Shown here: one piece after another, positions 11,965-60,253 of the stretch
How positions within the stretch are numbered: the stretch's first letter is position 1
How the letters are laid out: each line of letters begins with the position of its first letter
Assembly (NCBI GenBank): GCA_977017645.1
Contig: OZ360232.1
Span: 35,340,001-35,404,000 of the forward strand
Direction of reading: 5' to 3'
DNA length: 64,000 nt
From: Torpedo marmorata
Taxonomy: Eukaryota
Made by a program: the position numbers and the translations under genes
The notes under the pieces: generated by a model
Seen by the model: only the letters and a program-made list of their open reading frames with translations
The model's database searches: none
What the model was told of the DNA's origin: nothing

Positions 11965-12642
11965 AAAGTAAAACAAGAAAGTCTGCAGACACCGTGGTTG
12001 AAGTAAAAACACAATGCTGGAGAAACTCAGCAGGTCAAACAGTGTACTTCATGTAGCAAAGATAAAGATATATATCTGACGTTTCGGGCTTGAGCTCGTC
12101 ATCGAGATATGAGCAAAATGTAGGCAGGCGCCCGAACAAAAAGGTTGGGGGGGAGGGGCAGGGGGAGGAGCACGGTCCCACAGGCAGGAGGTAATAGGTG
12201 GATAAGGGAGGGCACACCAGCAAACGAGAAGGGGGGATGGCTCGGTAAAAACATGATTTCCCGTCTGGGCTCTCTCCAACCGGATAGAATTAACATAGAC
12301 TTCTCCGGTTTCTGCTAGACCACTCCCCGTTCTCCCTCTCTTCCCTTTCACTTTGTCTTCTTTCCTCCAGCTCTCTACCCCCTTCCCCCTTCCCTCTCCA
12401 TTCACAGAGCCATCCCCCCTCCCCCTGTTTGCTGGTGTGCCCTCCCTCCCTTATCCACCTATTACCTCCTGCCTGTGGGACCGTGCTCCTCCTCCCACCA
12501 TTTTGTTCGGGCGCCTGCCAACATTTTTCCATACCTTGATGAAGGGCTCAAGCCCGATATGTTGGTTTTGTATCTTTATTTTTGCTGCATAAAGTACCCT
12601 GTTTGTTTGACCTGCTGAGTTTTTCCAGCATTGTGTTTTTAC
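11965..12642. mobile_element. Penelope-derived inverted terminal-repeat cassette with two hammerhead-like motifs
   Basis: Left arm on the minus strand and right arm on the plus strand both match the 3' terminal repeat of the Penelope at 30404-30733. Motifs at 12077-12106 (-) and 12533-12566 (+). Confidence 0.75.
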
Positions 12643-21018: not shown

Positions 21019-21023
21019 CCTTT

Positions 21024-22783: not shown

Positions 22784-23132
22784 ATGCAGGTAGAGGCAGA
22801 TGTGCGGTCGTGCACCTACATAGCAGGGGGCCCAAAGTCCGCATGGTCCGTGGAAGGGCCCGACTCGCCCCTGTCCGACGCTGGGATCTGGGAGGACGCA
22901 GGTGCGCAGGAGGTCGGGGAGATGGACAAGGGTGGGCAGCGTCCCCCTGGCAGCACCTTTGTGTACAGTGAGGCAGCTCCCACCGGGGGTGAGGCGGAGG
23001 CAGGGCAAGTGCCCAGCGCCGGGGAGGAAGTCACACCAACCTCCAGCAGCTCACCAGAAGCCAGCGATGAGAGGACTAAGCCCTGGAGCCCAGAGGGAGG
23101 AAGACTTCCCAATGGACAGCAGACTCCAACAC
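22784..23132 (+). CDS. SYNPO: Probable upstream coding exon of SYNPO (exon 22540-23132, ATG at 22784; acidic, Pro/Gly-rich ~116 aa)
   Basis: Unique, non-repeat GC-rich segment. Acceptor tttccttttctcatacag|G at 22539/22540 and donor AC|GTAAGG at 23132/23133. It ends in phase 1, so C+GA gives an in-frame Arg with the 60634 exon. Long mammalian SYNPO has a similar-sized low-complexity N-terminal exon. No direct sequence homology was recognised. Confidence 0.6.
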
Positions 23133-23256
23133 GTAAGGACATTTATCCCATTGCAGGGTGACCTTTAAAAGCTTTTATCGCGCCGATAAAAACTCTCTCA
23201 GTAAATACTGGGCCATTCGCAACAAAAGGCCCACAGCAGTGTGTGACCATATAACA

Positions 23257-24160
23257 CAATACTGAGGGGGGTGGGTGTCTCACTGTGGGAGGGGCACTAC
23301 TGAGGGGGGGTCACTGTGGCAGGGGTGGTACTGAGGGAGCTCCCCCCTGTGGGTGGGGCAGTACTGAGGGGGGTCACACTGTGGGAGGGGCAATACTGAG
23401 GGGGGGGTCATACTGTGGGAGGGGCAGTACTGAGGGGGTCACACTGTGGGGAGGGGCAGTACTGAGGGGGGTCACACTGTGGGAGGGGCAGTACTGAGGG
23501 GGGGTCACTGGGGGAGGGGCGGTACTGAGGGGGGTCACACTGTGGGAGGGGCGGTACTGAGGGGGGTCACACTGTGGGAGGGGCGGTACTGAGGGAGCTC
23601 CCCACTGTGGGAGGGGCAGTACTGAGGGAGCTCCCCACTGTGGGAGGGGGCAGAACTGAGGGAGCTCCCCACTGTGGGAGGGGCAGTACTGAGGGAGCTC
23701 CCCACTGTGGGAGGGGCGGTACTGAGGGGGGTCACACTGTGGGAGGGGCGGTATTGAGGGAGCTCCCCACTGTGGGAGGGGCAGTTCTGAGGGAGCTCCC
23801 CACTGTGGGAGGGGGCAGTACTGAGGGAGCTCCCCACTGTGGGAGGGGGCAGTACTGAGGGAGCTCCTCTGTGGGAGGGGCAGTACTGAGGGAGCTCCCC
23901 ACTGTGGGAGGGGGCAGTACTGAGGGAGCTCCCCACTGAGGGAGGGGGCAGTACTGAGGGAGCTCCCCACTGTGGGAGGGGCGTTACTGAGGGAGCTCCC
24001 CACTGTGGGAGGGGCAGTACTGGGGAGCTCCCCACTATGGGAGGGGGCAGGTCTGAGGGAGCTCCCCACTGTGGGAGGGGCAGTACTGGGGAGCTCCCCA
24101 CTATGGGAGGGGGCAGGTCTGAGGGAGCTCCCCACTGTGGGAGGGGCAGTACTGGGGAGC
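23257..24160. repeat. G-rich minisatellite, ~33-34 bp unit (CACTGTGGGAGGGGCAGTACTGAGGGAGCTCCC and variants)
   Basis: More than 25 tandem units, with two subtypes (GGGGGGTCA and GGGAGCTCCC). Confidence 0.95.
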
Positions 24161-24511
24161 CATATCATTGGTCCTGGGATGACTTCATTGTCGTTTATAA
24201 CACAGCTGGTTTATGTACCTCTCACAATGTTCAGAAAGGCCCTGAGAGGCACCCAGGAAATGGGCAGGACCATGGACACAAGGCCACGGACACAAGGCCA
24301 CGGACCAGTCACAATCTTCTCCTGCTCACCATCTGCTGCTGATTCATTGATGGTGGCAGAAACAATTCAGCATAAAAGGCTCTGAAAGAGAAAGCAGGCT
24401 GTGGCTGAGGGAGAGGGAATAGAGAGAGAGAGAGAGAGAAAGAGGGAGAGAGAGAAGGAAGGGTGGGGTTGGGGGAGAGAGATAGAGAGAGGGAGGGAGG
24501 GTGTCAGCGGG

Positions 24512-25012
24512 AGATTCGGTATGTCACCGAAGACACTCGAAAACTTCTACAGGTGTACTGTGGAGAGCATTCTGGCTGGTTGCATCACTGTCTGGTACGG
24601 AGGAGCCAACTCTCAGGACAAGAAAAAATCTCCAGAGGGTTGTTAACTCGGCCTGCGACATCACAGGCACCAGACTTCACTCCATCGAGGACGTCTACAT
24701 GAGGCGGTGTCTTAAAAAAGCAGCCTCTATCCTCAAAGACCCCCACCACCCAGGCCATGCCCCCTTCACTCTGCAACCACGGGAAAAAGGTACAGGAGCC
24801 TAAAGACGAGCACTCAACGGCACAAGGACAGCGTCTTCCCCGCTGCCATCACATTCCTGAATGATCAATGACCCAAAGACACTACCTTACTTTTCGTGCA
24901 CTATTTTAAAAATTTATTGTTGTAAGGTGGTGTATATGAATGTTTGCACAGTGATGCTGCTACAAAACACCGAATTTCGTGACTTGTTCATGACAATAAA
25001 TTCTGATTATGA
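24512..25012 (+). mobile_element. Rex1/Babar-type LINE, 3' part (family B)
   Basis: FYRCTVESILAGCITVWYG...RRCLKKAASILKDPHHPGH; tail ACAATAAATTCTGATT. Confidence 0.8.
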
Positions 25013-25690
25013 ACTGATTCTGGGAGGGAGTGAAAGGTGTGATGGGAAGGGCGTATGTGAGAGGGGGAGAGAGAGTGTGAAAGGGAGGGGAGAGTGTGGG
25101 AGGCAGTGTGAGAGGTAGGGAGGGAGCACGTCTAAGAGGGGGTGGGAGTGTAAGGGAAGGAGTGTAAAAGGGAGGGTGTGGGAGGAAGAGGGCGGGAGAG
25201 TAAGCGGGAGGGAAGAGCGTGAGTGAGCGGGAGGAGGGTAGTGTGAGGGAGGGGCAGTACTCCCTCATCATGCCCATCTACACTCAACCCACTTGCCTGC
25301 ATTGGGAACATATTCTCCATTGTGATCCGTCTTGCAGCCACTGGCAGAGGCGTATCTCACATCGTTCTCCTGTTCCTCTCCCTCTGCCTCCAAGTTTCCC
25401 AATCATTCCCAATCCAAGCTCAAGTGAAGTTTATTGTCATCTGATTGTACAAATACAACCCGATGAAATTGTTATCACTCACTGAGAGGAAAGGGAGCAA
25501 TTCAATTAATATTGTATCCTTAGCACCCCAATATTTATCGTGGCCCAAGCAGGAAGATGCACCTGCGAAGAGGAAGGTCTCACAAGCATGGCCTGGAGTA
25601 GCATTCTCTGTGCCAAAGGCCTGAAAGTCATCAGGAAGTCTAACAGTGAGGGGAAGCGAAAACAAAAGCAGGGAGGTGATACATTAATTA

Positions 25691-25866
25691 GACCACATTG
25701 GGGATACGGTGGACAGCATTGGTGCCCTTGTTTAAAGCAGGGTTAATGAGACCACATTGGGGATACGGTGGACAGCATTGGTGCCCTTGTTTAAAGCAGG
25801 GTTAATGAGACCACATTGGGGATACGGTGGACAGCATTGGTGCCCTTGTTTAAAGCAGGGTTAATG
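25691..25866. repeat. Perfect 3x 59-bp tandem duplication inside an old CR1 remnant
   Basis: GACCACATTGGGGATACGGTGGACAGCATTGGTGCCCTTGTTTAAAGCAGGGTTAATG starts at 25691, 25750 and 25809. Confidence 0.95.
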
Positions 25867-26419
25867 CTTTGGAGGCTGTTCGGAGACTGATGCCTGGAGC
25901 ATCAGTTGGACAGGCTGGGCTTGTATTTGCTGGTAATCAGAAAAGTGAGAGAGGATGTGGGGAAGATGTCCAAGATCGTGAGGGGGTCTTGATGAGGTCA
26001 AGGCGGAGGGGATGTTTCTTGAAGGCAAATCTGGAAAGAGGGTGAGAGTGATCGCAACTTAAGACAGAGATGAGGTGAATTTCTTTTTCTCCCAGCTATC
26101 CCAGGAGATCCTCACTGCTCCCACTCTTTACATTCTATCCATCTACCTACCTACCTGCCTACCTGTCTGTCCATCTATCTGTCCATCTATCCATCATCTA
26201 CTGTATCTATCTGTCTACCTTTCTATCCATCCATCCATCCATCTATTTTATTTAGAACATAGAATGGTACAACACGGGAACAGACCATTCAGCCACGTGT
26301 CTGCACCATACGTGATGCCCAGGTTGAACTGAACCCCTGCTGCCTGCACATGATCCAAATCCCTCCATCCTTTTCATAATTATGTGTCTATATAGAAGCC
26401 TCTTAAACACCTCCATTTA

Positions 26420-26672
26420 AAAAAAAATTTTAATTTTAATTTTAGACCTACAAGCACGGTAACAGGCCCTTTCAGCCCATGAGCCCGTGCTGCCCAATTA
26501 CACCCAATTGACCTCATACGCTTTGAAGGGAGGGAGGAAACCAGAGCACCCAGAGGAAACCCACGCAGGCACGGGGAGAACGTACAAACTCCTTACAGAC
26601 AGCGCCGGATTTGAACCTGAGTCACTGGCGCTATAATAGCGTTGTGCTAACCGCTACGCTAACTGTGCCGCC
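26420..26672 (-). mobile_element. tRNA-derived V-SINE (HE1-like)
   Basis: Same consensus as 2950-3190. Confidence 0.85.
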
Positions 26673-28344
26673 CTTACCATGCTCCCCAGGCACCCACCAC
26701 TCTGTCTGTAAAAACTTTCCCCCCCCCCACATCCCCTTTAAACTTCCTCCACCCTCCCCACCTTACATAGAACACTACAGCACAGTACAGGCCCTTTGGC
26801 CCACAATGTTGTGCCGACCTCTATATACCTACCAAAAATAAAATACTAAACCCTCCCTACCTCGTAACCCTCTATTTTTCTTCCATCCATGTGCCTAAGT
26901 GTCCCTTAAATGCCCCGATGATTACAGCCTCCACCTGGCAAGGCATTCCAGGCACCCACAACTCTCTGTGTAAAATAATTACCCCTGATGCCTCCCCTAA
27001 ACGTCCCTCCCTTCACTTTGTACAGATGTCCTCTGGCGTTAACCTTAAATGTGTGTCCTCTGGTATGTGAGATTTGTACCCTGACTATCTCTCATACATT
27101 TTATAAACCTTTATCAGGTCTCCCCTTGGTCTCCAACGCTGCAGAGAAAACAACCCAAGTTTGTCCAACCTCTCCCCATAACTCACACCCTCTAATCCAG
27201 ACATCCTGGTAAACCTCCTCTGTCCCCTTTCCAAAGCCTCCACGTCGTCCCTGTAATGGGGCAACCAGAATTGCACACAGTATTCCAAGTGCAGCCTGAC
27301 CATAGTTTTATATCACTGCAACGTGACCTCCTTACTTTGAATTGTCACGTGTACCGAACTACAGTGAAAAGCTTCTTTTTGCGTGCTATCCAGGTATTGC
27401 AAGTCACCAGACCAGCACCATGGTTGCATTATAAGAAATGAACATTGAACTAACATTTCAAGTCATTTTGTGAATAAAACAACAAAATTCCTAGAAATGG
27501 ACTACTGTCCGATGAAGTCACGTCATAGGCCCTTCGGCCCAACTTGACTATGCTGACCAAAATGTCCCACCCACACTAGTCCCACCTGCCTGCGTTTGGC
27601 CCATGCCCCTCTAAACCCATCCTATCCATGTATGTATTGTTTTTTCTTAAACATTGCACCAGTACCTGCTCAACCACCTCCGCCGGCAGCCCCTTCCACA
27701 CACCCACCACCCTCTGTGTAAAAAAAAGTTACCCCATTAGATTCCTGTTAAATCCCTCCCCCCTCACCTTAAACTTATGTACTCTGGATACCGATTCCCC
27801 TACTCTGGCCAAAAGACTCTCTGCGTTCACCTAATTTATTCCTCTCATGATTTTGTACACATCTATGAGATCACACCCTGCGCCACTCCTCTGCCTCCAC
27901 CTTTCCTTTATCCAAATGATGCGGAGTAGGTTTACATCGGGCAGCACAGCATCGCGGGCCGAAGGGCCTGTACTGTGCTGTGCTGTTCTATCCTTCTCCT
28001 CTCCTGGGTCCACCAATCACCACCTGGCCCCTGTCTCACCCCTTCCCCCTCTCCTCTCCACACCGGCTACCTCCCCCCACCCTCAGTCAGTTCTGCCGCA
28101 AGGTCTCAACCCGAAGCATGCACAGTTCCTCTCCCTCCTCCGCATGGATTGGTTGGGGATATATTCCTGCGTGGTCACTGGGTCAGAATCCCAGAACCCC
28201 CTTCGAAAACTCTGTGGGAGTCCTTTCCCCAGAAGGACTGGAATGGCTTGACACCTTCTCAGGGAAACCAGCGATGGGCAATAATCATAAATCAAAATTT
28301 ATTGTTGTTTTGCGGCAGCATCACAGTGCAAACATTTATAAAAA

Positions 28345-30733
28345 CGCTGCAATGCCGAACTCTTCTTCCGTCGCCTCCGCCTCCGGGCTCACTTCCATGA
28401 TCGTGACTCTCCACCCCCCACCCAAGACCCTTTCACCCGCTTCAAGCCTTCTTCCTCTTCCTGGACACCTCGTCCTGGCCAGCTGCCCGCTCTGGATCTT
28501 TTTATTTCCAAATGACGCCGAGAAATCCACCGTCTCAACTTTACCACCCTCCTCTCGGATTCCAACCACACCTCCTCAGAACGCTGTGCCCTCCACTCTC
28601 TCCGCAACAATCCCAACCTCACCGTCAAACCCGCAGACAAGGGCGGTGCGGTTGTGGTCTGGCGCACTGACCTCTACCTTGCCGAGGCCAGTTGACAGCT
28701 CTCAGACACCTCCTCCTATCGACCCCTCCCATAGGACCCCACCACTGCACATCAAGCCAGTGTCTCCAACACCATCTCCGACCTCATCACCTTCGGTCAC
28801 CTCCCCTCCACGGCCACCAACCTCATTCTCCCCCACCCCCGCACTGCCCGTTTCTACCTTCTACCCAAGATACACAAACCCAACCATCCGGGCAGACCCA
28901 TTGTTTCTGCCTGCTCCTGCCCCACCGAACTAGTTTCATCTTACCTTGACTCCATCTTTTCTCCCCTGGTCCAATCCCTCCCCACCTACATCCGCGACAC
29001 CTCACATGCCCTCCATCTCCTCAATGACTTCAGATTCCCTGAACCGGACCGCAACATCTTCACCATGGATGTCCAATCCCTTTTTTCCCCCACACAGAAG
29101 GTCTGAAAGCACTTCGCTTCTTCCTGGACCAAAGACCCGACCAGTCACCCTCTACCATCACCCTCCTCCACCTGGCAGAACTTGTCCTCACTCTCAATAA
29201 CTTCTCCTTTAACTCATCCCACTTCCTCCAAATCAAAGGAGTAGCCATGGGTACCTGCATGGGTCCCAGCTACGCCTGCCTGTTTGTGGGCTTTGTGGAG
29301 CAATCCATGCTGCAAGCCTACACAGGCAAGACCCCTCATTTCTTCCTCCATTATATCGCCGAGTACATTGGTGCTGCCTCATGCACCAACGATGAGCTTG
29401 TCAACTTTATCCACTTCGCATCCAACTTCCACCCCGATCTCAAATTCACCTGGTCCATCTCCAATAACACATTCCCCTTCCTGGATCTCTCTGTCTCCAT
29501 CTCAGGAGACAAGCTTTCCACCGACATTTACTACAAACCCTCCAACTCCCACAACTATCTGGACTACACTTCCTCACACCCTGTCCCCTGCAAGGATTCC
29601 ATCCCCTTCTCTCAATTTCTCCGTCTCCACCGCATCTGTTCCCAAGATGAGGTGTTCCAGGCCAGATCTTCTGAAATGTCTGCCTTCTTCCACAAACGTG
29701 GCTTCCCCTCCACCACCATCAACTCAGCCCTCACCCACATCTCCTCCATTTCCCGCTCATCTGCCCTGGCCCCCGCTGCCCCCAGACGCAACAAACATAG
29801 AATCCCCCTCATCCTCACCTACCACCCCACCAGCCTCCGCATCCAACACATTATCCGCAGGAATTTCCGGCACTTACTACAGGATCCCACCACCAGACAA
29901 CATTTTTCCTTCTCCTCCCCTCTCGGCCTTCCGCAGGGACCGCTCCCTCCGCGATTCCCTCGTGCACTCATCCCTCCCCACCCATTGCACCCCCGGCACC
30001 TGCCCCTGTGCCCGCAGGAGGTGCAACACCTGCGCCCACACCTACCCCCTCACTACGATCCCCCAAGCAGGTCTTTCAAATGAAACTACACTTCACTTGT
30101 ACATCCAGAGAACTTATTTACTGCATCCAGTGCTCCCTTTCTGGCTTTCTATACATTGGAGAGACCGGTCGTAGATTGGGAGACTGCTTTGCTGAGCACC
30201 TCCTCTCCGTCCGCAACAACAGCGACCTCCCAGTAGCCAACCATTTCAATTCCGAGTCACACTCCCACACTCACATGTCTGTCCATGGCCTTATGTACTA
30301 TCCCACCCAGACTACCCGCAAATTGGAAGAACAACATCTAATTTTTCGTCTGGGCACTCTCCAGCCAGATGGCATTAACATTGACTTTTCTGCTTTCCAC
30401 TAAACCTGCTTGTTGTTCCCTTCCCCTCTCCCCTCACCTGTCCTTCCTGTTTTTTTCCACCAACCCAGCCATCCCTCCTCCCCCTCTTTGCTGCTGTCCC
30501 CTCTCTCCTTTCTCCACCTATCATCTCCTGCCTTTGCCATCCCCCTCCCCCCTCACTCTTTTGTTCGGACGCCTGCCGGCATTTTCTCATGCTTTGATGA
30601 AGGGCTCAAGCCCGAAACGTCGGTTATGTATTTCTACCTTTGCTACATAAAAGACACTGTTTGACCTGCTGAGTTTCTCCAGCATTTGTGTTTTTTACTT
30701 CAACCACGGTGTCTACAGATTTTCGTGATTTAC
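28345..30733 (+). mobile_element. Penelope-like retroelement (RT plus GIY-YIG endonuclease), 5'-truncated and frameshifted, with 3' terminal repeat
   Basis: Across frames: KPADKGGAVVVW, PRTARFYLLPKIHKP...GRPIVSACSCPTE, GVAMGTCMGPSYACLFVG, FPFLDL, DIYYKP, IPFSQFLRLHRICS, and the GIY-YIG IYCIQC...LYIGETGRRLGDCFAEH. The RT YxDD motif is mutated to YIAE. Confidence 0.9.
30591..30628 (+). ncRNA. Putative minimal type-I hammerhead ribozyme in the Penelope terminal repeat
   Basis: TTGATGA-A-GGGC(TCAA)GCCC-GAAA-CG-TC-GGTT: core boxes, stem II and a palindromic ACGT at helix III. Confidence 0.6.
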
Positions 30734-30761
30734 TTTGGGATAGAGGGGGTGGGGGGGGGGG

Positions 30762-31045
30762 CTAATTTAAACCAGAGAAGTTGATGTTAATGCCACCTGG
30801 TTGGAGGATGCCCAGACGGAAGATGAGGTGTTGTTCCTCCAATTTGCGGGTGGTCTCAGTCTGACAGTGCATGAGACCATGGACAGGCATGTCGGCAAGG
30901 GAATGGGATGTGGAATTGAAATGGGTGGCCTCTGGGAGATCCACTCTATTGCGGCGGACAGAGACAAGGTGTTCAACAAAGCGATCTCCCAGTCTGGATC
31001 CAGTCTCTCCGATGTAGTGGAGACCACAACGGGAGCACCAGAGGG
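30762..31045 (-). mobile_element. Penelope GIY-YIG fragment, inverted relative to the 28345 copy
   Basis: WCSRCGLHYIGETGSRLGDRFVEHL...RKLEEQHLIFRLGILQPGGIN. Confidence 0.8.
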
Positions 31046-31217
31046 AGTGGGGTGGGGGGAGTAAGTACAGGGGTAGGTCTGATCTCTGCTGACCACAACT
31101 CTTCTGTGCCAGTTCCCCAGAACATATCTGCAGACCCATCAGCCTCTGTCCAAAGCCAGGAATCCTGTTTCAGTATCAGTCCCCGTCACACGAACGGGTG
31201 CCTGCCTACATTTTGCT

Positions 31218-31258
31218 CATGCCTTGATGAAGGGCTCAAGCCCGAAACGTCGGTTATG
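31218..31258 (+). ncRNA. Putative minimal hammerhead ribozyme
   Basis: CATGCC-TTGATGA-AGGGCTCAAGCCC-GAAA-CGTC-GGTTATG. The flanks can pair as stem I; predicted cut after C31251. Confidence 0.62.
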
Positions 31259-31714
31259 TATCTTTATCTTTGCTGCATAAAGGACACTGTTTGACCTGCT
31301 CAGTTTCTCCAGCTTTGTGTTTTTACTAAGTACAACTAAGTTTTATTTCCACTGGTGATGCATGACCCTCTGTTAATTTATACATACAGCACAACAACAG
31401 GCCCTTCTGGCTCACAAACCCGTTCCGTCCACGTGACCAATTAACCCACTAACCCTGTACGTCTTTGGAACGTGGGAGGACACCGGAGCAGTCAGAGATG
31501 TTGGGGAACCTGCAGTGGGTGGTGTTCCCATGTGCCTGCTGCCCTTGTCTCTCTTGTTACTCGAAATCCAAGCCTGGAAAGTCCTGTCAGAGTAGCCTGG
31601 GTGGGTAACTGCGGTGCATTCTGTCGACTGGTTCCACCATGTGCCAGCGGTGGAGGGAGGGAGTGTTTAGCGTGGTGAGTGGGATACCACTGAAGCAATC
31701 TGACTTGTCACGGT

Positions 31715-32170
31715 TAAAACCATAGACCACTATAGCACAGAAACAGGCCCTTCAGCCCATCTAGTCTGAGCCGAACTATTATTCTGCCTAGTCCCATTGA
31801 CCATACTCCTCCCATCCATGTACCAGTCCAAATTTATCTTTAATGTCAAAATTGAGCCTGCATTCACCACTTCAGCTGGCAACTCATTCCACACCCCCAC
31901 CTCTCTCTGTGTGAAGAAGTTCCCCCAAATGTTCCCTTTAAACATTTCACCTTTCACCCTTAACCCATGTCCTCCAGTTCTTGTCTCACCCAACCTCCGT
32001 GGAAAAAGCCTGCTTGCATTTACTTTATCTATACCCCTCATAATTTTGTATACCTCTATCTTATCTCCTCTCATTCTCCGACGCTCCGGGGAATAAAGTC
32101 CTAACCTGTTGAACCTTTCCCTGTAACTCAGTTTCTCGAGTCCCGGCAACATCCTAGTAAATCTTCTCTT
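31715..32170 (-). mobile_element. CR1 3' fragment
   Basis: MLPGLEKLSYRERFNRLGLYSPERRRMRGD...FFTQR...WNELP. Confidence 0.8.
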
Positions 32171-32724
32171 GTTGATACTGAGCTTTGAGAGGCTTGGAGC
32201 TCACCTTATCCATGCAAGTTCATTGTGTCCCATCACGCTCCTGTCTTGCTCCTTGTTGATGATGGAGAAACTCTGCGCCCTGGTCCAGTTGTGTTGCTGG
32301 TCAATGGCCCTCACCGTGACAGGGTCCTCAGTGACAGGAATGCCTTCGTCCTTGATTTCTGCCTCCTTTGTGGCATGAATGTCACTTGACACACACCGGC
32401 CCACGGCTGAATGTGGAGCAAGCGGTGAGGAGCTGAGGGACTCAACGGGTCGGGCAGCATCCGTGGAGATAAATGGTTGGTCACCGCTTCAGAAAGGGTC
32501 CCGACCTGAAAATCTGTTTCATGGAACCATAGAAAGTCGGAGCAGGAGAAGGCCATTCAGCCCTTTGTGCCTACTGTACCATACAATACGATCATGGCTG
32601 ATCATGTGACCTCAGTCCCCTATCCCTGCTCTCTCTCCACACCCCTTGGTCCCTTTAGCCATAAGGGCCACATCCCTTTTAAATACATCTAACGAACCGG
32701 CCTCAACAACCTTCTGTGGCAATT

Positions 32725-33425
32725 TTTTTAAAAAATATTAAATTTAGACATACAGCACGGTAAAAGGCCATTTCGGCCCACGAGTCCGTGCCGCTCAATT
32801 TACACCCAATTGACCTACAACCCCCGTACGTTTTGAAGGGTGGGAGGAAACCAGAGCGCCCGGAGGAAACCCATACAGACACGGGGAGAACGTACAAACT
32901 CATTACAGATAGCACGGGATTTGAACCCCGGTCCCGATCTCTGGCGCGGTAAAGGCGTTGCGCTAACCACTATGCTAACCGTGCCGCCCCAAAAACAAAG
33001 AGTTCCACAAGTTCACAACTGTCTGAGTGAAGTGGTTAGCGCAATGCTGTTGCAGCGCCAGCGACCGGGATTCGAATCTGTCTGTAAGGAGTTTGTACGT
33101 TCTCCCCGTGTCTGCGTGGGTTTCCACCAGGTGCTCCGGTTTCCTCCCACCCTTCAAAACGTACCGAGATTGGACACGTAGAAACATAGAAAACCTACAG
33201 CATAATACAGGCCATTCGGCCCACAAAGTTGTGCCGAACATGTCCCTACCTTAGAAATTACTAGGCTTACCCATAAGCCCTCTATTTTTCTAAGCTCCAT
33301 GCACCTATCCAAAAGTCTCTTAAAAGACCCTATCGGTTGTAGGTTAATTGGGAGTAATTGGGCGGCACGGGCTCGTGGGCTGAAAGGGCCTGTTACCGTG
33401 CTGTATTTCTAAATTTAAATTTAAA
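32725..33425. mobile_element. Two divergently oriented V-SINEs: 32725-32990 (-) and 33030-33425 (+), the latter interrupted by a CR1 tail at ~33180-33335
   Basis: V-SINE cores on opposite strands. Confidence 0.8.
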
Positions 33426-35819
33426 ATTTCTCCTCATCTCAGTCCGAAATGGCTTCCCCCTTATCGTTAGACTGTGACCCCTTGTTCTGGACTTCCCCAA
33501 CATCGAGAACATTCTTCCTGCATCTGACCTGTCTGGTCCCATCAGAATTTTATGTCTCAATGAGATCCCCTGTCGTTCTAAATCCCAGGGGGTATAACCC
33601 TGGTTTATCCAGTCTTTCTCCATCCGTCAGTCCTGCCCTCCCAGGGATCAGTCTAGTGACCTCTCCAAGGTCTCTTCATGGAGTCCCTTAGCTCAAGATT
33701 CCAGCGTCTACAGTCCTTGTGTTTCTTGTGCCTGATCGGTGCACCCCCTCAATAGAAAGGATGCCCTTCCTCAGATCAGGAGAACAAAACTGTACATAAC
33801 ACTCAAGGTGTGGCCTCACCAAGGCCCTATACACCTGCAGTCAGACCTCCCTGCTTCAATATTCAAAACCTTTCACAATAAAGGCTTTCTTCATCGCCTG
33901 CTGGACCAGCAGTCCGACCTTCACTGACTGATGCACCGTGACCCCCAGGTCTCACCATGGAGTCCCCTTCGCCTCAGGATCCAGGCACCTGCACACCTTG
34001 TGCTTCTCGTGCCTGATCGGCATACTGATCCTGCGGCGTCGCCGTCCAGAGCTGCTCGGTTTGCTGCAGAGTTGCAAACGGAGTGACACCTTGTGCGCCT
34101 GCCAGCGAACGTCCCCACCTCCGGCCCGGCAAAGGAGGGAAGGTCACTGGTGGATCATCTGAAGATGGTTGAGGCCTGAGGATCTGCATTGATGTCCTGA
34201 GATAATTGATCTCCGACCACCACAACCATCTTCCTTTGACCCAAGTTCAAATCCCCTTGACTTCACTTGACGCCACTCTCAATGAAGTGCCACCTTGATA
34301 TTGGGGTCCGTCACTCTCAGCTCCTTAATATCCATGTTAACCACACACCTCAATTCAATAACCCTGTAAAATCTCAAAACCGTATCTCCAAGTCCTGAGT
34401 AAAAATTTTTAATATAAATATTGAAACACTTTCTACCCTTTGCCAATCTGAATAACTACCTTTGACCTTTGCTTACTCCAAATAATGCAAGGTAAACACA
34501 ATTTATTTCCTTATTACTGCATAACCAACTCCTACGGTACAATTGGCTGACCTTTGAAAGCTTCAGTGGTGATAGGTGTCTTGAGATATCCTGGGACAGT
34601 AGAAAGGGAATTGAGAAATGAAACCCCCCCTTTCCCTGCTACCTCTTTGTAACAGAGGAAGTAATATGACCCCCCCCCCAGGAATTATCCATTTGTATAT
34701 CGCTAACTTTACAGTTGCCAAACATTTTTTTTTCCCTGAAATGTTTCAGCGAGCGATGACTCAGACAATACAGCTCAAAAAAGTAGAGTCACACAGACCC
34801 TCCGAGTGTGGTCTCACCAACACCTTGTGCAGTTGTAACATCACGTCCCAGCTCCAGTACTCAGTGCCCTGACCAATGAAGGCACACGTGCCAAACACCT
34901 TCATCACCACCCTGTCCATCTGAGTTCCGGGAGTGGATCTAGGTAGAGAGGGTCCGAGGAGTAACAGGTTACGTGGAATTGGAGAATGCAATGTTCATCG
35001 AGAGGTGACAGTGAAGCCAATATAGAGTCATAGAACGTGGAAACAGGCCCTTCGGCCCAACGTGCCCACGCCGACCAAAATGTCCCACCCCACGTTAGTT
35101 CCACCTGCCTTTTGGCCCCTATCCCTCTAAACCCGTCCTATCCGTGTATCCATCCAATTTTTTCTTAACATTGCAATAGTACCTGCCTCAACCACCTCCT
35201 CCGGCAGCCCGTTCCACACACCCACCACCCTCTGTGTAAAAAACATTGCCCCTCAGGTTCCTGTTAAATCTCTCCCCCCTCACCTTAAACCCATGTCCTC
35301 TTGTTACCGATTCCCCTACTCTGGGCAAAAGACCCTCTGCGTTCACCCGATCTATTCCTCCATGAGACCACCCCTCATCCTCCTGCGCTCCAAGGAATAA
35401 AGCCCCAGCCTCCTCAACCTCTCCCTGTCGCTCAGGCCCCCGAATCCTGGCAACATCCTCGTAAATCTTCTCTGCACCCGCTCCAGCTCAACGACATCTT
35501 TCCTGCAGCACGGTGACCAAAACAGAACAAAATCCTCCAAATTAAAAAATTCCCTAACATCTTTATAACAGAGCAGTGAATCAATGGAATTTTCTGAGAA
35601 TCTTTGTTAATCTGCGGAATTTTCCACCGTTTTTTTCTTTAGAACCTTGGTTTGTTATTTCCTTCTTTGTTGGTTGGGATAGTGTCTGTGACATTATAGA
35701 GACAGGGGGATTTCTGGGGTTGTGAAAGAGAAACTGTTTGCTCTGAATGTGAATGAAGGCCAGAACAAGGGAATTAGAAATTAACGCTAGGGTGGTGTTA
35801 AAAACAAATTAAAAAAACT

Positions 35820-36030
35820 ACTGCAGATAATAGAAATCTGGAATTAAAACAAAATACTGAAAACACTCAGCAGGTTAGTCAGCATCTGTGGAGGGAGAGA
35901 AATGGAGTTAATATTACGTTGAATATCCTCTGTCAGAACAGGTCAGCAGTTGTGATGAAAGGTCCCAGACCTGAAACGTCGACAGTCTCTCGTTCCATAG
36001 ACCCTGCCTGACCTGCTGAGTGCTTCCATA
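35820..36030. mobile_element. Older Penelope-derived inverted cassette with a hammerhead-like motif at 35951-35983
   Basis: CACTCAGCAGG...GCATCTGTGG is inverted with CCTGACCTGCTGAGTG; core GTGATGA-AAGGTC(CCA)GACCT-GAAACGTC. Confidence 0.6.
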
Positions 36031-36212
36031 TTCTGATGTTACAAAAGCTTCTGCACATGAAGATCAAAGTTCAAGGTTCCTTTTATTGTCACATAAGAAT
36101 ACATTAAAAAAGTATCATACATGATATTGTCTGCCCGTTTATTTCTTCTACCAAAGTGCATGACCGTACACTTTGTATTTCATTTGCCACTTCTCCGCCC
36201 ATTCTCCTAATC

Positions 36213-36328
36213 CAGTGCTTCTCAACCTTTTTCTTTCCACTCACATACCACCTGAAGAAATCCCTTACTCACCACAGAGCACCTATGGCATCCTATGTGA
36301 GTGGAAAGAAAAATGTTGAGAACCACTG
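36213..36328. mobile_element. hAT MITE (same family as 3403)
   Basis: CAGTGCTTCTCAAC...GTTGAGAACCACTG. Confidence 0.75.
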
Positions 36329-36542
36329 ATCAAAATCACTGATATACAACATAAAAATTAAAAGTTAAACCAGGCCCGGTCTCACGCAGTAAATAGAAGG
36401 TCCCTTGAGAGTGTTGTAGACCTCAGGGTACAGGTACCTAGTTGCCTGAGTGTTAGTGACCCAGGTGCTCAGGGTGGTGGTGAAGGTGTTTGACATGCTT
36501 GCCTTCATCGATCAGGGCACTGAGTACAGAAGCTGGGACGTA

Positions 36543-37148
36543 AAAAGTAAAACACAAGAGTCTGCAGACACCGTGATTGAAGTAAAAACACAATGCTGGA
36601 GAAACTCAGCAGGTCAAACAGCGCACTTTATGAGCCCATATATGAAAGCTGTTGGTTTAAGGATTTGAACATCTCTGGATATCGGATCTACTGGCACGCT
36701 TGACCTCCATAATAGAATTAGTTTATAGATGGCATTCCCCTTACTTTATCTTTTTCTTTCTTTCTTTTTTCTTTTTTACTTTTTATTATATTTTTATTAG
36801 ATTAGTGGGGGTGGGGGGGGTTGGGGAGGGGAGGGAGGGAGGGGGGGTGAAAATGTATCACAAATAATTTGATAATTTTATATTCTATTTTATGTATTTT
36901 GTGATTAAAAATTTTTAATAAAATATTTTTTTTTAAAAACAAAAAAAAACAAACAGCGCACTTTATATAGCAAAGATAAAGATACATAACCAACGTTTTG
37001 GGCTTGAGCACTTCATCAAGGTACATCAAGGTATTTTTCCATACCTTGATGAAGGGCTCAAGCCCAAAACGTTGGTTATGTATCTTTATCTTTGCTATAT
37101 AAAGTGCGCTGTTTGACCTGCTGAGTTTCTCCAGCATTGTGTTTTTAC
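36543..37148. mobile_element. Penelope-derived palindromic cassette, interrupted by an L1 3' fragment
   Basis: Near-perfect inverted arms around the junction CATCAAGGTACATCAAGG (37014-37031). Confidence 0.8.
36632..36949 (+). mobile_element. L1 3'-end fragment with poly(A)
   Basis: Resembles the 3' UTR of the 5405 L1. 17-bp TSD CAAACAGCGCACTTTAT at 36615-36631 and 36950-36966. Confidence 0.85.
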
Positions 37149-38477
37149 AGGACCAGGGACGTCATGTTGCAACTGCACAAGACATTGGTGAGATCATATT
37201 ATGTGCAGTTCTGGTCACCCAGCTATAGGACAGATGTCATTAAGCTGAAGAGGGTGCAGAGGAGAGTGATGAGGATTGTAGAGCTCCGGTTACAGAGAAA
37301 CTGGATAGGCTGGGACTTCTTCCCCTGGAGCCCAGGACACTGAGGTCTGACCTTACAGAGAGGCATAGATAAGTGAATGCTCACAGTCCTATCCCCAGAG
37401 CAGGGGAGTCTAAAACCAGAGGTTAGAGGGGAAAGATTTCAAAGTGACCTTCTTCACACAGAGGGTGGTGGGTGTGTGGAACGAGCTGCCAGAGGAAGTA
37501 GTAGAGGTGGGGACAATTACAGCATTTAAAAGGCCTTCAGACAGGTACATAGATAGGAAAGTTTTAGTGGGATATGGGCCAAACAGAGGCAAATGGGACT
37601 GGCTCTAGTAGACACTTGGTCGGCATGGATGAGTTGGCTGAAGAGGCTGTTTCTCTAACTCAATGTCTCCATGGATAGGCATATGGTTAGAGAGGTGAGA
37701 GGATAAACATACTGACAGAGGTAAAGTGCGTTGGTGTCCTCGGTAACCTCAGCACAACCCAAAACCTGTGCACCACTTGAGGACTTTACGAAGAGTGATC
37801 GAACAGTCCAGAACAGGAACAGGCCCTTCGGCCCACGTTACTGTACTGAACGCGATGCCCAGTTTCAACTAAAACTCTGCTACTTGCACGTGATGCGTAT
37901 TCCTCTTCTCGCTGCATACCCACGCAATTACCCATACAGTTCTCTGCTGTAAGGCTGGAGGAATTAGCCGCCATTTTGTGCACTGCAACCTCCCATAAAC
38001 TGCAATAACAATGTCCAGATACACGAAGATAAATGTTGGCCACTTCTTCGAATTAATAGCATGGGATATTCCTCATTCACCGACTAATACGACAGTGCAG
38101 GACTCCCACAGGTTTGAAAAATCGAGTGCCCAGGAATGCAGAAGGTTGCAGAACATAACAAACACAACCAGGCCTATCACAGGCTCCGACCTCTCATCCA
38201 TTGAAGACATCTATGTGAAGCACTGCCTCAAGAAGGCAACCAACATCACCCTGGTCACAACCTCTTCTCACCGCTCCCTTCGGGCAGAAGGTACAGAAGC
38301 CTGAAGACCAGCACCTCTAGGTTCAAGAACAGTTTTAATCCAACAACTATCAGGCTTTTGAACCTCCCTGTACTACCCTAACCCTGACCATAAATGACTC
38401 CGGAGCCTCCAAAATATGTATCTGCACTATTGAAACATCACTTTTTCTTGCACTAACTGGAATTAGGAATATTTATT

Positions 38478-38705
38478 GGGCAGCACAGTTAGTGTAACGG
38501 TTAGTGTGATGCTCTCACAGCGGCAGTGACCCAGGTTCGAATCCAGCACTGTCTCCCCGTGACTGCGAGGGTTTCTTCCGGGTCCTCTGGTTTCCTCCCA
38601 CCCTCCAAAACGTACCGGGGTTGTAGGTTAATTTGGGTGTAATTGGGCAGAACGGGTTTAAATGGCCGGAATCGGCTTCTACTGTGTTGTAAATAAAATT
38701 TAAAA
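38478..38705 (+). mobile_element. V-SINE inserted in the 3' UTR of a Rex1-type LINE (38110-38885)
   Basis: B-box GGTTCGAATCC and a partial V core. The host encodes SIEDIYVKHCLKKATNI. Confidence 0.75.
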
Positions 38706-39879
38706 TGTTACATTTATTTATTTATTCTTTTATATTTGTTACCTTTTTTGTCTCAGCATATGTGGTAATTTAATGCATGCTATTGTAGTATCCTCTGTAC
38801 CTGTGCGGTTGCAGCAAGTCAGAATTTCGATGCATCCATACACTGCTCATGTATATGACAATAAGATCTCATCATCATCATCATTGTTGGCCTAGATCGT
38901 GCACTGAAGTCTCTGGTGCAGGAACGACAAACAGAATGGTGAGTAAACAGGAAAATATTGCACAGGTTTGTAGCGAGGGGAACGGGAGAATAGAGCATTG
39001 AAACAGGGCACTCCGTGCCGCTAATTTAAGCCACGCGCCCTCATGTTTCACTCCGACAACCACCGTTGGCAAACAGCGAGAGAGTTAGGGCAGCCAGCTG
39101 GTGATTTAATCAAAGGGGTAAGTGCTGGAGGATTTGCGAGAGCAAGCATTCAAAGCGCCGGGTGTCTCCTGACACAAAGATATGCTTTTCTCCCTGGCCC
39201 ATGTCAGGCAGGCAGAGCTCGGAATCACAGGCTGAACTTGTTACACGGCAGTCAGCAAGGCATCAACATTTTAAATATCAACAGAAGCCATGTATGATGT
39301 ATGTAAAGTACACAATTAAAGCAACAAGGTCAAATGGCGCGTGGCTTGTGGAGAACCATGGGGTGAGTGCAGCTACAGATTATATTTTTACTGTAGTTAA
39401 CGCTCAGGAACATTGGAATGGGAAATCCTCATGGACATATTTTAATGCAGGTTTGTACACAGCAGGATCCATCTAAACTGTGAAGGTGTTGAAGGAGTGA
39501 TTTGCATTCCCATAGCACATTCCACACCCTCCGGCCAGCCTGAGTGCTTTACACCCAATGAACTAAAAACTAATGAGGATGAGAGTTTATTGTCATATAC
39601 GTAAGTACAATGTACTGGTGAGGACTCACTTGGACTACCGGGTATCGTTTTGGGCTGCTTATTTAAGAAAGGATGTGCTGCCATTGGATAGGGTTCAGAG
39701 AAGATTCACAAGAATGATTCCTGGAATGAAGGGATTGGCATATGAGGAACATTTGATGGCTCTTGGACTGTACTCCTTGGAGTTCAGAATAATTTATATT
39801 TAATTTTAATTTAGACATACAGCATGGTAATAGGCCCTTTCGGCCCACGAGCTCGTGCCACCCAATTACACCCAATAAA

Positions 39880-40650
39880 ATAGTGCAAGAAAATGAAAAA
39901 GACAAAGTAAGGCAGTGTCTTTGGTTCATTGTGCATGCAGGAATCTGATGGCAGCGGGGAAGAAGCTGTCCTTGTGCCGCTGAGTGCTCGTCTTCAGGTT
40001 CCTGTACCTTTTCCCCGATGGTAGCAGAGTGAAGAGGGCATGGCCTGGGTGGTGGGGGTCCTTGAGGATAGAGACACCGCCTCTTGTAGATGTCCTCGAT
40101 GGAGTGAAGACTGATGCCCGTGATGTCGCAGGCCGAGTTAACAACCCTCTGGATTTTTTCCTGTCTTGAGCATTGGCACCTTTGTACCAGTGAGGCAACC
40201 AGCCAGAACGCTCTCCACGGTACACATGTAGAAGTTTTTGAGAGTCTTCAGTGACATACCAAATCACCTCAAACACCTCACAAAGTATAGCCGCTGGCAA
40301 GCCCTCTCGTGATTGCATCGACATGGAGGCTCCAGGACAAATTCTCAGAAATGTTGACACCCAGGAATTTGAAGTTCTTAACCCTCTCCACTACTGACCC
40401 CTCGATGAGGACTGGTTCGTGTTCTGACTTCTTCCTGAAGTCCACAACCATCTCCTTGGTTTTGCTAACGTTGAGTGCAAAGTTGTTGGTGTGACACCAT
40501 TCAACAAGCTGATCTATCTCCATCCTGCACACTTCCTCATGGCCATCTGTGATTCTGCCGACAACCGTGGTGTCATCGGCAAATTTGCAGATAGCATTAG
40601 AATTGTGCCTGGCCACACAGTCATGGGTGTAGAGTGAGTAGAGCAGTGGG
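39880..40650 (-). mobile_element. Rex1/Babar-type LINE, RT to 3' end (family B)
   Basis: PLLYSLYTHDC...KFADDTTVVG...LNVSKTKEMVVDFR. Confidence 0.85.
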
Positions 40651-40859
40651 CATGTAATACCCAAACAGGTAGCAATGCTGTTATTTAATTTTCAGAAGTA
40701 GGTATTGAGGGCTGATGAAGAGGTACCGAGGGTAGATCATTGAATGATGGGGCAGGACTGAGAGGTCGAATGCCTTCTTCTTGGTCCTAATTTCATCTCT
40801 TGTTATGCCTCTACGATAAGATAAAAACTCACTAAATAGCTATTCACATTCCTCTGGAC

Positions 40860-41047
40860 CAGCCATTCTCCACAAGGGCCCTAGGGGCCACAGCACATTT
40901 AAGGGGGTCATGGACTGAAATCGTAAAATATTTAAAATGTTTTTTTATGTAGTACGGAAGAAACCAACTAAACGACTGTTTCACAGGAAAGGGGCCCGGC
41001 CCATAAACTTTGAATGGGCATAACCAAAGAAAGGTTGAGAATGGCTG
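40860..41047. mobile_element. hAT MITE (CAGCCATTCTC family), directly followed by a V-SINE at 41048-41338 (+)
   Basis: TIRs CAGCCATTCTC / GAGAATGGCTG. Confidence 0.75.
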
Positions 41048-41359
41048 GCTTAGCGTAGCGGTTAGCGCAATGCTGTTACAGCGCCAGCGACCAGGAATGG
41101 GGTTTGAATCCGGTGCTGTCTGTAAGGAGTTTGTACGTTCTCCCCATGTCTGTGTGGGTTTTCCCCGGGTGCTCCAGTTTCCTCCCACCGTTCAAAACGT
41201 ACCTGGGTTGTAGGTCAATTGGATGTAATTGGGCGGCATGGGCTCGTGGGCCAAAAGGGCCTGTTACCGTGCTGTATGTCTAAATTTTAATTTTTTAAAG
41301 AATTAAATTTAACTTTAAATCTAAATTTAAAATTTAAATGGCTGTTCTGGACACTCCAA

Positions 41360-42005
41360 AGTGTTGCATCTGGTGCTCCCGTTGTGGTCTCCTCTACATC
41401 AGAGAGATTGGGCGCAGACTGCGAGATCACTTTGCTGAGCACCTCAGCTCTGTCCGTCGCAATAACATGGATCTCCTAGTGGCCACCCATTTCAATTCCC
41501 CATCCCATTCCCTTGCCATGTCTGTCCATGGTCTCATGCACTGCCAGACTGAGACCACCCGCAAATTGGAGGAACACCACCTCGTATTTTGTCTGGGCAC
41601 CCTCCAACCAGATGACATTAACATCGACTTCTCCGGTTTCCGTTAGTTCCCCCCCATCTATCCCTATGTCGCCTTTCCTTTAGCTCTGTCTCTCTCTCTC
41701 TTCCCTTTTCCCTCTGTCTCCTGTCCCCCTGCTCTGCATTCACAGAGTTACCCCCTCCCCCATGTATTCTCACCTTCCCTCTCTCCTGTCCTCCTATCCA
41801 TATCCAATTAACGCCTTTTGTCTGTTGGTCTGTCCTCCTCCCCTGCCCATTTTTCCCTTCTTCCCAGCCTTTTAATTCAGGCGCCTGCCTGCTTTTTGCT
41901 CATACCTTGAAGAAGGGCTCAGGCCCGAAACATCGGTGATATATCCTTACCTCCTATGGACGCTGCGTGACCAGCTGAGTTCCTCCAGCATTTCTGTGCT
42001 TTTAC
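41360..42005 (+). mobile_element. Penelope GIY-YIG plus terminal repeat with a hammerhead-like motif (41903-41938)
   Basis: CIWCSRCGLLYIREIGRRLRDHFAEHL; ACCTTGAAGAAGGGCTCAGGCCCGAAACATCGGT. Confidence 0.8.
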
Positions 42006-43284
42006 CAAAGTGCTGGGCGCCCAATGGAAGGCATTGGGAGTGAACTCATTGCTGCAATGTGGGAGAGACAGCTGTCAATTTATGCAGCAAGCACTCATAA
42101 TATGTAAACAGGCAGAACATCCATTTTAGGTGATGTCGATCAGGAATTAGTCAGGGTGGGAGATGAAAGGCCCTGTTCTTATCGAGGGACATTGCCTCAA
42201 GGATTCAGGGAGTAGATTTAGGATGGAGTTGAGGAGGAACTGCTTCTCCCAGAGAGTAGGGAATCTGTGGAATTCACTGCCCAAGGAAGCAGTGGAGGCT
42301 GCCTCATTGAATGTATTTGTGACAGTCATACCATGTGAATACAGGCCCTTCGGCCCACACCAACCAAACTGTCCCACCTACATGCGTCCCACCTGCCTGC
42401 ATTTGGCCCATATTCCTCTAAACTTATCCTATTCATGTATCTGTCCAATTCTTTCTTAAACGTTGCAATAGTCCCTGCCTCAACCCCCTCCTCCGGCAGC
42501 CCTTTCCACACACCCACCATCCTTTGTGTAAAAGCATTACCCCTCAGGTTCCTGTTAAATCTCTCCCCCCTCACCTTAAACCCATGTCCTCTGGTTACCG
42601 ACTCCCCTAATCTGGGTAAAAGACTCAATCTATTCCTCCCATGATGTTGTTCACCTCTATGAGATCCCCCCCTCATCCTCCTGCGCTCCAAGGAATAAAG
42701 CCCCAGTCTGCTCAACCTCTCCCTGTAGCTCAGGCCCCCGAGTCCTGGCAACATGCTCGTAAATCTTCTCTGCACCCGCTCCAGCTCGACGACATCTTTC
42801 CTGCTGCACGGTGACCAAAACTGAACACAATCCTCCAAATATGGACTCACCAACATCTTGTACAACTGCAACATGACCCTCCCAACTTCTTTCTTTTTAA
42901 AATATTTTTATTGATTTTTAATACAGAACTTATACAGATAATATAATTCAATAAAATGATATGGATAATTGTACAAAATTAATAAAACATTCAGTAAACA
43001 AAAACATACATAAGTTGTAAGTCATATCTATAATACGTATTCCAAGTGCTATATATATATATAAAAAAAAGAACTAATAACAAAAAAGGAGAGAAAAAAA
43101 GAACAAACAAAAAAAAGAAAAAAAGAGAAAAGAAAATAGTAAAAAGGAGAAAAGGAGAAAAACTCAAAACCCCTGCCTAACAGCGTTGCCAGATGCTGTA
43201 TATGATTACTATAAAAAGAAAAACAAAGGTAGAAAAAAAATGTGGAAAAAAACATGGAAAAGATACGAGTCAGACAATTTAATT

Positions 43285-43398
43285 AAAAGGTAAAGGTTCC
43301 ATTATTGTCACGTAATACTAAATTTAGAATGTAACATGCATGAAATTCTTTAATTTTTGTCTACCGTAAGGCAGACAGAGAGTCTCTACTTTGTCCAG
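43285..43398 (-). mobile_element. 5'-truncated copy of the 5S-derived SINE, in the L1 3' UTR
   Basis: The reverse complement closely matches 930-1041. Confidence 0.85.
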
Positions 43399-46300: not shown

Positions 46301-46516
46301 GAGTCCTTATCTGATAATAACACTGAATTAAAGCGCCAGTGTCTTTTATCTTGAGGAAAATTAGGAAGAATCAGTGACATTGTTACAGGGGAGTGATCAG
46401 ATATTACAATACTGTGGTATTCACAAGAATGAGTTAGTGGAATTAAATGATTATCAATAAAAAAAATAATCAATACGTGAGTAAGTGTGATGAACTTGGG
46501 AAAAGAAAGAATACTC

Positions 46517-46725
46517 TGTAGCGGCGCGCACTCGCGGGTCTCGAACCGCCATTGGACACAACGGGGTGTCCGGAGCTACGCGCTCGGGGCGGGACTTCCG
46601 GAAAGGGTGCTGATGTCACTTCCGCCCCGGGAACAGTTCAGTGTTTTTGAATCCAGTAAAGACTCCATAATTGAACTCCACAGTCTCTGCGTCTTTAATC
46701 AGTAGCGCGCCGTAGCACGACTACA
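46517..46725 (+). mobile_element. Solo LTR (209 bp, probably Gypsy) inside the L1 endonuclease region
   Basis: TGTAG...CTACA termini, 4-bp TSD ACTC, CpG-rich, AGTAAA poly(A)-like signal. Confidence 0.82.
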
Positions 46726-52439: not shown

Positions 52440-52572
52440 NNNNNNNNNNNNNNNNNNNNNNNNNNNNNNNNNNNNNNNNNNNNNNNNNNNNNNNNNNNNN
52501 NNNNNNNNNNNNNNNNNNNNNNNNNNNNNNNNNNNNNNNNNNNNNNNNNNNNNNNNNNNNNNNNNNNNNNNN
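52440..52572. other. Assembly gap
   Basis: Run of N. Confidence 1.
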
Positions 52573-52706
52573 TATTGAAATGCACTTGTTACTTTGGATT
52601 TTTTTTAAAGTATCTGAATTTCATATAATTTGCACAAATAAAGGAAATTTTGAACTGTTATGGATATTCTTCCCCATATCCTCAGATGGTTTTGAGGTAA
52701 AATATG

Positions 52707-52841
52707 TGTTACAAATTCAAACCAGCAACGACAGAAGACGCAATGCAAAAGGGGTAAAATTGAAATTTATATTTATTAAAGACAATTAAACATATAATTT
52801 CACAACAATTAACCCCACTATAAACACTATTCTTATCTAAA

Positions 52842-52874
<33 letters not shown>

Positions 52875-60050: not shown

Positions 60051-60253
60051 ATCAAGTCAGGTCAAGTTTATTGTCATCCGATTGCACAAGTACAACCCGA
60101 CGAAACAGCGTTCTCCGGTCCTTGGTGCAAAATACGCAGACACACAACCAGACATAACACATACAGACAAAAAATACATATGCAGGACAAGTATTCATAT
60201 ATACAAATAAATAAATAGATTCTGTTTTGTACAAATGAGACCATATGTAAAGG

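Follow-up and report, generated by a model that had tools for sequence, protein, structure and literature searches.

Minimal hammerhead ribozymes of Penelope-like elements (PLEs) were described by Cervera and de la Peña in 2014 (PMC4209133), who reported an extra base, a palindrome, pairs of motifs on opposite strands, U3-A8 variants and a low activity of the dimers. The motifs of the window (the whole stretch of 64,000 nucleotides of Torpedo marmorata DNA analysed here) resemble the metazoan motifs of that paper in their type-I topology, the lack of a helix III loop, the palindromic 15.2-16.2, the G10.1-C11.1 pair, the extra base between positions 9 and 10.1, the location in a pseudo-LTR (pLTR), and the occurrence of many dispersed single copies and of opposite-strand pairs. 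They differ from the motifs described there by an uncompensated U3·G8, which is fixed in the dominant lineage, and by a helix II of 4-5 bp, while their number is 10- to 50-fold above the 4,000-9,000 copies given for coelacanth and Xenopus (PMC4209133). The kind is a known one, the PLE minimal hammerhead; what is uncommon is the core variant, which occurs here in a very large number of copies.

U3·G8 itself has a precedent in the 2014 supplement (PMC4209133, Fig. S3), where the Saccoglossus kowalevskii (1) PLE motif has the core UUGAAGAA, with U3 and G8, an extra A and a CG palindrome. This core is identical to that of subfamily C here, while the Saccoglossus motif differs in being one representative sequence with a 6-bp helix II. 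Shark, skate, Callorhinchus and Leucoraja gave no match in the text-searchable part of the same supplement. The minimal hammerheads of the Schistosoma Cercyon PLEs also have U3, but an A8 restores the Watson-Crick pair there whereas G8 is kept here. The Poseidon element of Anolis carolinensis, as described in PMC11167929, shares a hammerhead at the pLTR-ORF junction and a tail downstream, and differs by its C3-G8 core and by an ORF start inside stem II; in the element described here the ORF starts ~180 nt downstream of the motif and the Cys linker is that of Neptune/Nematis. The amniote hammerheads of RECK and C10orf118 share the host-intron location, but they are presented in PMC3088659 as single, conserved and active monomers, whereas the copies described here were inserted recently and in great number, and nothing points to a use by the host. 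Our literature search, in which papers on hammerhead sharks swamped the cartilaginous-fish query, retrieved no work on PLE hammerheads of rays or on a PLE lineage with U3·G8, although Lunse 2017 may cover the variant.

The lineage bears on the question of why PLEs keep hammerheads that barely cleave and that insertion in vitro seems able to do without. It amounts to a natural experiment, in which the 3-8 Watson-Crick pair was broken, the other core bases were kept and the motif was then amplified, with both C3 ancestors and C3 revertants as controls in the same genome. Descriptors that allow only C3 would miss ~97% of the relaxed-pattern matches in this family.

Hammerhead motifs of the window

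The search of the window with the core pattern (at most three substitutions) recovered the 12 copies listed in an earlier note on this DNA and no further ones, and the same pattern gave no match in 20 dinucleotide shuffles of the window. Position 3 of these copies is at 12105 (-), 12536 (+), 30594 (+), 31224 (+), 37019 (-), 37046 (+), 41907 (+), 55731 (+), 56155 (+), 60394 (-), 60422 (+) and 62604 (-). The earlier note had given U at position 3 as the rule, which was borne out by 11 of the 12 copies, C3 being found at 60422 alone. It was also right in naming Penelope minimal hammerheads, since the motifs sit in the pLTR of a Penelope-like element, whereas its claim on the extra A after A9 was overstated: the base is present but is conserved in all PLE minimal hammerheads. 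Its consensus, taken exactly as stated with stem II left free, matched only 2 of the 12 copies. The proposed ACC/GGT stem I has to be amended, because its two headline copies start with GCU and GCC and contain G·U pairs in this stem, and of the two stem II families that it named, GGGC/GCCC and AGGTC/GACCT, the latter is represented in the window by one decayed copy. That copy (35946..35986, +) belongs to an older family with an AGGUC/GACCU stem II; a relaxed search of all sampled loci gave 10 matches, among which an AAGGTC stem II was found in three copies (35952, L174 and L046).

Positions follow the hammerhead numbering, and G12 is read according to its known role in the ribozyme. In 4 of the 12 copies (30594, 31224, 60394 (-) and 60422) the core is intact, stem II pairs along its whole length and the ACGU palindrome is kept; in the others, G12A, mismatches in a stem or loss of the palindrome are seen. 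The first intact copy (30588..30628, +; called 30591) has its U3 at 30594, a predicted cut after C30621 and a stem I that U·G and G·U pairs make weaker. The second (31218..31258, +; called 31221) has its U3 at 31224 and a predicted cut after C31251, the position that had been predicted earlier for the cut after GUC; C30621 is the corresponding predicted position in the first copy. The subfamily C copy at 41901..41941 (+) has A7 and lost its helix III palindrome, the copy at 55725..55765 (+) has an A·C mismatch in stem II, and the older copy at 56149..56189 (+) has C7 and G12A.

Three pairs are inverted. The pair 37019 (-)/37046 (+) (36985..37080, both strands) has G12A in both copies and is predicted to be locked in a hairpin of -64 kcal/mol, and the pair 60394 (-)/60422 (+) (60360..60456, both strands), made of an intact U3 copy and of the C3 copy, is predicted to form a hairpin of -65.7 kcal/mol. 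Both members of the pair 12105 (-)/12536 (+) (12071..12570, both strands) are decayed and lie upstream of the first SYNPO exon described below. The C3 copy 60422 is nested in subfamily B and is therefore a revertant. This copy (60416-60456, +) lies 212 nt upstream of the SYNPO acceptor; pairing with its inverted partner is predicted to sequester it.

Six further sites had been listed as degenerate copies; 7672 (-), 35952 (+) and 32488 have a downstream pLTR anchor, that of 32488 being on the minus strand, whereas none was seen at 3376, 28090 and 49228. The site on the minus strand at 7638..7678 is a decayed U3 copy with G12A. The Rfam scan of the window gave no hammerhead model among its 15 matches at E<=5; its MIR4208 matches are the inverted motif pairs.

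The element that carries the motif

Copy 30591 is the end of a 5'-truncated and frameshifted PLE of subfamily A (28352..30735, +) with RT, Cys linker, GIY-YIG, 3' pLTR and tail. This element is 93-95% identical over 2.4 kb to genomic copies with open frames of 835-1,060 codons, and its long-ORF relatives encode an RT, a CX4CxxC linker and a GIY-YIG domain. At locus L260, RVT_1 (E 6e-5) and GIY-YIG (E 2e-3) were found below the Pfam cut-offs; homologues carry PF00078 and PF01541, and YIDD is present. Pfam searches of 10 window fragments gave a single match, a weak Calsarcin for SYNPO, the PLE domains being seen only on longer copies. The linker before the endonuclease (CX2-5CxxC) reads CARRRCNTC in L260 and in the window ORF, and it is on this motif that we assign the element to the Neptune type. 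An RT followed by a Cys linker and GIY-YIG is the layout given for Neptune/Nematis in PMC8557442. The same source describes for PLEs the pLTRs made of partial tandems, the inverted 5'-truncated copies and the tail of 30-40 bp, features of endonuclease-bearing (EN+) PLEs that were all found here.

In full-length copies (5 of 13 loci), two same-strand U3 motifs located 3.8-4.3 kb apart flank the RT-GIY-YIG ORF. The first ATG of this ORF is 178-179 nt downstream of position 3 in four of the five, and the motif is therefore non-coding; a coding constraint on it was rejected, as no ORF overlaps it. At the 12 loci chosen for their close pairs, many insertions lie head to head, with one motif on each strand. 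A non-LTR retrozyme, made of non-coding head-to-tail hammerhead units, was likewise rejected for 30591 and 31221, which are not units of one tandem repeat. At L260, the N-terminal part of the PLE ORF (1900-2450) contains GC-rich tandem repeats in variable number that are open in more than one frame. Frames with RT and integrase, which we take from their motifs to be of LTR-retroelement type, adjoin PLE insertions at L224 (5592-6410) and L228.

The genome contains 73,920 exact copies of the motif (counted as 25-mers). In a sample of 120 evenly spaced 10-kb pieces from six contigs (1.2 Mb in total), 79-88 copies were found, which corresponds to about 410,000-460,000 copies genome-wide. Among 88 copies of this sample, pairs located within 1 kb were on opposite strands in 10 cases and on the same strand in 5. 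With its 12 copies in 64 kb the window is ~2.5 times as dense in motifs as the sample, where the average is 73 per Mb; local clustering may be the cause.

Replacement of C3 by U3

U3 was present in 72,589 (98%) of the 73,920 exact copies and C3 in 511; with stem II left free, the counts were 96,873 for U3 and 3,072 for C3. Decay as the source of U3 was rejected, since 98% of the exact copies carry it. Additional copies were sampled through the downstream spacer rather than the core, which gave 146 matches, 122 with the anchor and 88 that could be classified into subfamilies (A, B, C, C2, D, E and G, letters coined in this analysis). Subfamilies A, B, C, C2 and part of D were U3, whereas the older D, E, G and others were C3.

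The tree was built on 103 of 222 rows and 120 columns with positions 3-9 excluded, and its bootstrap was unconverged; the rows dropped were 41 unclassified ones, 66 of 78 from subfamily A, the C3-selected revertants within A-C2 and those with other bases at position 3. It placed D(U3), C, C2, B and A on one branch among the C3 families (54 U3 rows and 1 C3 row of 55; support 96/81). By this placement the U3 subfamilies derive from C3 ancestors, and five subfamilies in succession have U3 fixed. The tree needs four label changes, two of which come from mis-registered rows, and the simplest reading would be one main C3U event, within D.

The Watson-Crick 3-8 pair is absent from all five U3 subfamilies, which have U3 with G8, and it was never restored: neither U3C nor G8A, each a single transition, founded a subfamily. 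These cores depart from CUGANGA with C3, but the published PLE family includes U3 members, so the variant lies within the family. The other hammerhead features are present, namely U4 G5 A6, G8 A9, GAAA, UH, a helix II closed by G-C, the extra base after A9 and the palindromic helix III. Three old copies (L099, L159 and L055) read U3 with A8, a hint of a separate U3-A8 family, and several older copies of family E (L099, L059 and L066) point to a core with C3-C4 (U4C) and to decay at CpG.

Probable constraint on the motif after C3U

Comparison of the subfamily majority bases showed differences at N7 (C, A or U), H17 (C or U), one loop base, position 2.1 (C to U, a wobble) and distal stem I, where a plausible A-U to U-A swap is present in C2. 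The subfamilies were identical at U4, G5, A6, G8, A9, the extra A, G10.1, GAAA, CG and U16.1. None of the ~9-12 lineage-level changes over the 41-nt motif fell at the 14 core and helix III positions (p ~0.007-0.02, post hoc).

Within subfamily A, comparison of two changes of the same CpG showed C11.1U, which keeps a wobble, in 5,337 copies and the core-breaking G12A in 2,040, and comparison of sites with the same base and 3' neighbour gave 2,816 N7 variants and 174 U4 variants. Each of these contrasts corresponds to about one successful sublineage (A in 94 of the first 100 N7 variants listed) and is inflated by the founder effects of single sublineages. When both arms of one insertion were compared (pairs within 3 kb, counted by eye among the first 100 matches listed), tolerated changes were common to both arms in 9 and 11 pairs and core changes in 1 and 0. 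The tolerated variants, often common to both arms, were therefore inherited through retrotransposition. The 52 subfamily A copies found by alignment had 3 mismatches of 572 in the core and 87 of 4,934 in the rest (p=0.02). Stem II, the loop and the non-ribozyme downstream pLTR block are as conserved as the core, and the constraint is therefore not specific to catalysis.

Helices I and II were paired in 87.5% of cells compared with 4-46% in slid controls. For covariation across genomic copies, which the earlier note had proposed as a check, pairs changed on both sides numbered 4 against 3.8 in shuffles (300 of 500), so covariation is weak, and the cell-level excess of 17 against 9.1 is inflated by relatedness. 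The other proposed check, conservation of the core against that of the rest, favours constraint at the level of source lineages; it is informative for these only because inserted copies decay neutrally. The fold was probably still under selection in the source elements after C3U, as judged from these comparisons.

The SYNPO intron and its copies 30591 and 31221

The gene that the earlier note had named as SYNPO was found as such. Coding exon A (22784..23132, +) runs from the ATG to a GT donor at 23133 and was matched in tblastn by batoid synaptopodins at 39-54% identity, and the large coding exon B (60634..61994, +) has its best matches in batoid synaptopodins (E 4e-104). The top matches of the ORF at 60528-61994 are batoid synaptopodins that also match the exon starting at 22784. 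The GT at 23133 is in phase with the AG that ends at 60633, and the exon junction is colinear with the Pristis protein (P0001): QQTP and EQEA are separated by 10 residues in each. The phase 1 intron of 37.5 kb (23133..60633, +), assigned by homology, contains 9 of the 12 motif copies, which agrees with the earlier claim of many intronic copies; seven are sense and two antisense, and the sense copies showed no depletion in this intron (p=0.18). The copy at 62570..62610 (-), with a stem II mismatch, is downstream of exon B. The SYNPO location adds little, as at about one copy per 14 kb genome-wide several are expected in most large introns.

The earlier note had further proposed that copies 30591 and 31221 form a double hammerhead in cis and cut the SYNPO pre-mRNA, which would matter if it happened often enough. 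Both copies are in sense orientation in the intron and have an intact U3 core and ACGU; a nested dimer topology can be drawn in which every pair is standard. However, copy 30591 is of subfamily A and copy 31221 lies in a solo, tail-less pLTR fragment of subfamily B of ~130 nt (31195..31327, +; grouped with B at 100/93 support), and between them lies an older minus-strand PLE fragment with a GIY-YIG C-terminus (30737..31048, -). This fragment, from another subfamily, is cut off where the subfamily A insertion ends and is 86% identical to 41369-41655 and 76% to 30130-30396; an ORF is located in this region on the minus strand (30762-31169). Since their subfamilies differ and this older fragment separates them, the two copies are, by their sequences, separate insertions. 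Copy 31221 as the inverted 5' arm of the neighbouring minus-strand fragment was rejected, as these are of different subfamilies.

Same-strand pairs within 1 kb are common (5 among 88 copies in 1.2 Mb, or ~26,000 genome-wide), and folding, with a nearest-neighbour model that ignores tertiary contacts and their energy and with no active control folded, disfavoured the dimer. The predicted energies were -15.4 kcal/mol for the double hammerhead, -23.3 kcal/mol for two monomer rods and -30.7 kcal/mol for a competing duplex; within the 761-nt context, helices between the copies had a probability of ~0, and a constraint that imposed the dimer cost ~41 kcal/mol. Even the C3 PLE dimers are reported to cleave poorly (PMC4209133), and the sense copies show no depletion in the intron (7 of 9). 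We consider a cis dimer that acts on SYNPO very improbable. Two other sense copies (37046 and 60422) are predicted to be locked by their inverted partners in the hairpins of -64 and -66 kcal/mol. With an unlikely dimer fold and hairpin-locked copies, host regulation is therefore unlikely, and the intronic copies are likely inert debris or passengers rather than a gene switch.

Explanations for the retention of a U3·G8 core

The explanation that we favour, and hold to be somewhat probable, is that these motifs are minimal type-I hammerheads of the pLTR of a Neptune-type PLE whose source lineage fixed C3U, that they are slow self-cleavers in the RNA of the element itself, and that the SYNPO copies are inert. 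Of this, the identity of the element, the location of the motif, the copy number and the fixation of U3 are shown, and the core constraint in source elements after C3U has statistical support. A U3·G8 wobble would take the place of the C3-G8 pair, a tandem element transcript would join two motifs through the ACGU helix III, and this core would cleave slowly, probably with the help of a protein (PMC4209133, PMC11167929). C3U is expected to hurt activity because, when a type III hammerhead was mutated pairwise, low activity was found for all single mutants in the CUGA/G8 region, those of C3 included (PMC9901934). The monomer is moreover predicted to form a rod that pairs core bases, which counts against cleavage. 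In the report on the Anolis PLE, insertion in vitro was normal when the hammerhead had been inactivated by mutation, and RNA-seq showed no ends at the hammerhead cut site (PMC11167929). The main alternative, which is possible although we doubt it, is that cleavage was lost after C3U and that the motif was kept as a structural or protein-binding signal, for recognition by the RT or endonuclease or as a promoter element at the DNA level. The low activity of C3 mutants and an insertion that can do without cleavage agree with a non-cleaving fold kept for binding, as do the equal conservation of the adjacent non-ribozyme blocks and the fact that no subfamily arose from either of the changes that would restore the Watson-Crick 3-8 pair. 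However, the sites that vary (N7, H17 as C or U, and G·U at 10.1-11.1) are those left free under hammerhead rules, and an active-site fold therefore fits better than a generic binding site. A dead relic, free of selection since C3U and with a pattern due to few source elements and a short time, is quite unlikely: the subfamilies are young (a median divergence of 3-12% from their majority sequence, measured on a block of 35 nt), the count comprises only about a dozen changes and covariation is weak, but of the ~12 changes none fell at the 14 positions (of 41) that include three hypermutable CpG sites, while the spacer adjoining the motif was remodelled between subfamilies.

A shift of register, in which U3 pairs with the A at position 9 as in a U3-A8-type core, the base after N7 is looped out and the extra A compensates, would draw on the known U3-A8 cores and on the identity of the extra base, which is A both in the U3 subfamilies, without exception, and in the U3 motif of Saccoglossus. 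The extra A is, however, also fixed in C3 families of the same genome, G8 is conserved even where it is in a CpG (subfamily D), and insertions near A6 lower activity, so that we give this shift hardly any credence. C3U may even have been an adaptive throttle, in which the U·G wobble slows the hammerhead with the remainder of the active site unchanged, preserves full-length template RNA and makes copies harmless in introns, the C3 families being replaced; we regard this as unlikely. If true, it would be a ribozyme selected for low activity, and the lineage would thereby have reached hundreds of thousands of copies.

Other features of the window

A near-complete set of long LINE-like ORFs (RT, endonuclease and esterase-like) is present at 18081-21962 (-), which from its motifs we presume to be of CR1 type. 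Broken ORFs at 43811-48908 (-) and 5251-7137 (+) are, again from their motifs, presumably L1/Tx1-like. A decayed 5S rRNA-like piece at 801-916 (+) scored 37.6 bits against a cut-off of 38 and is possibly the head of a 5S-derived SINE.
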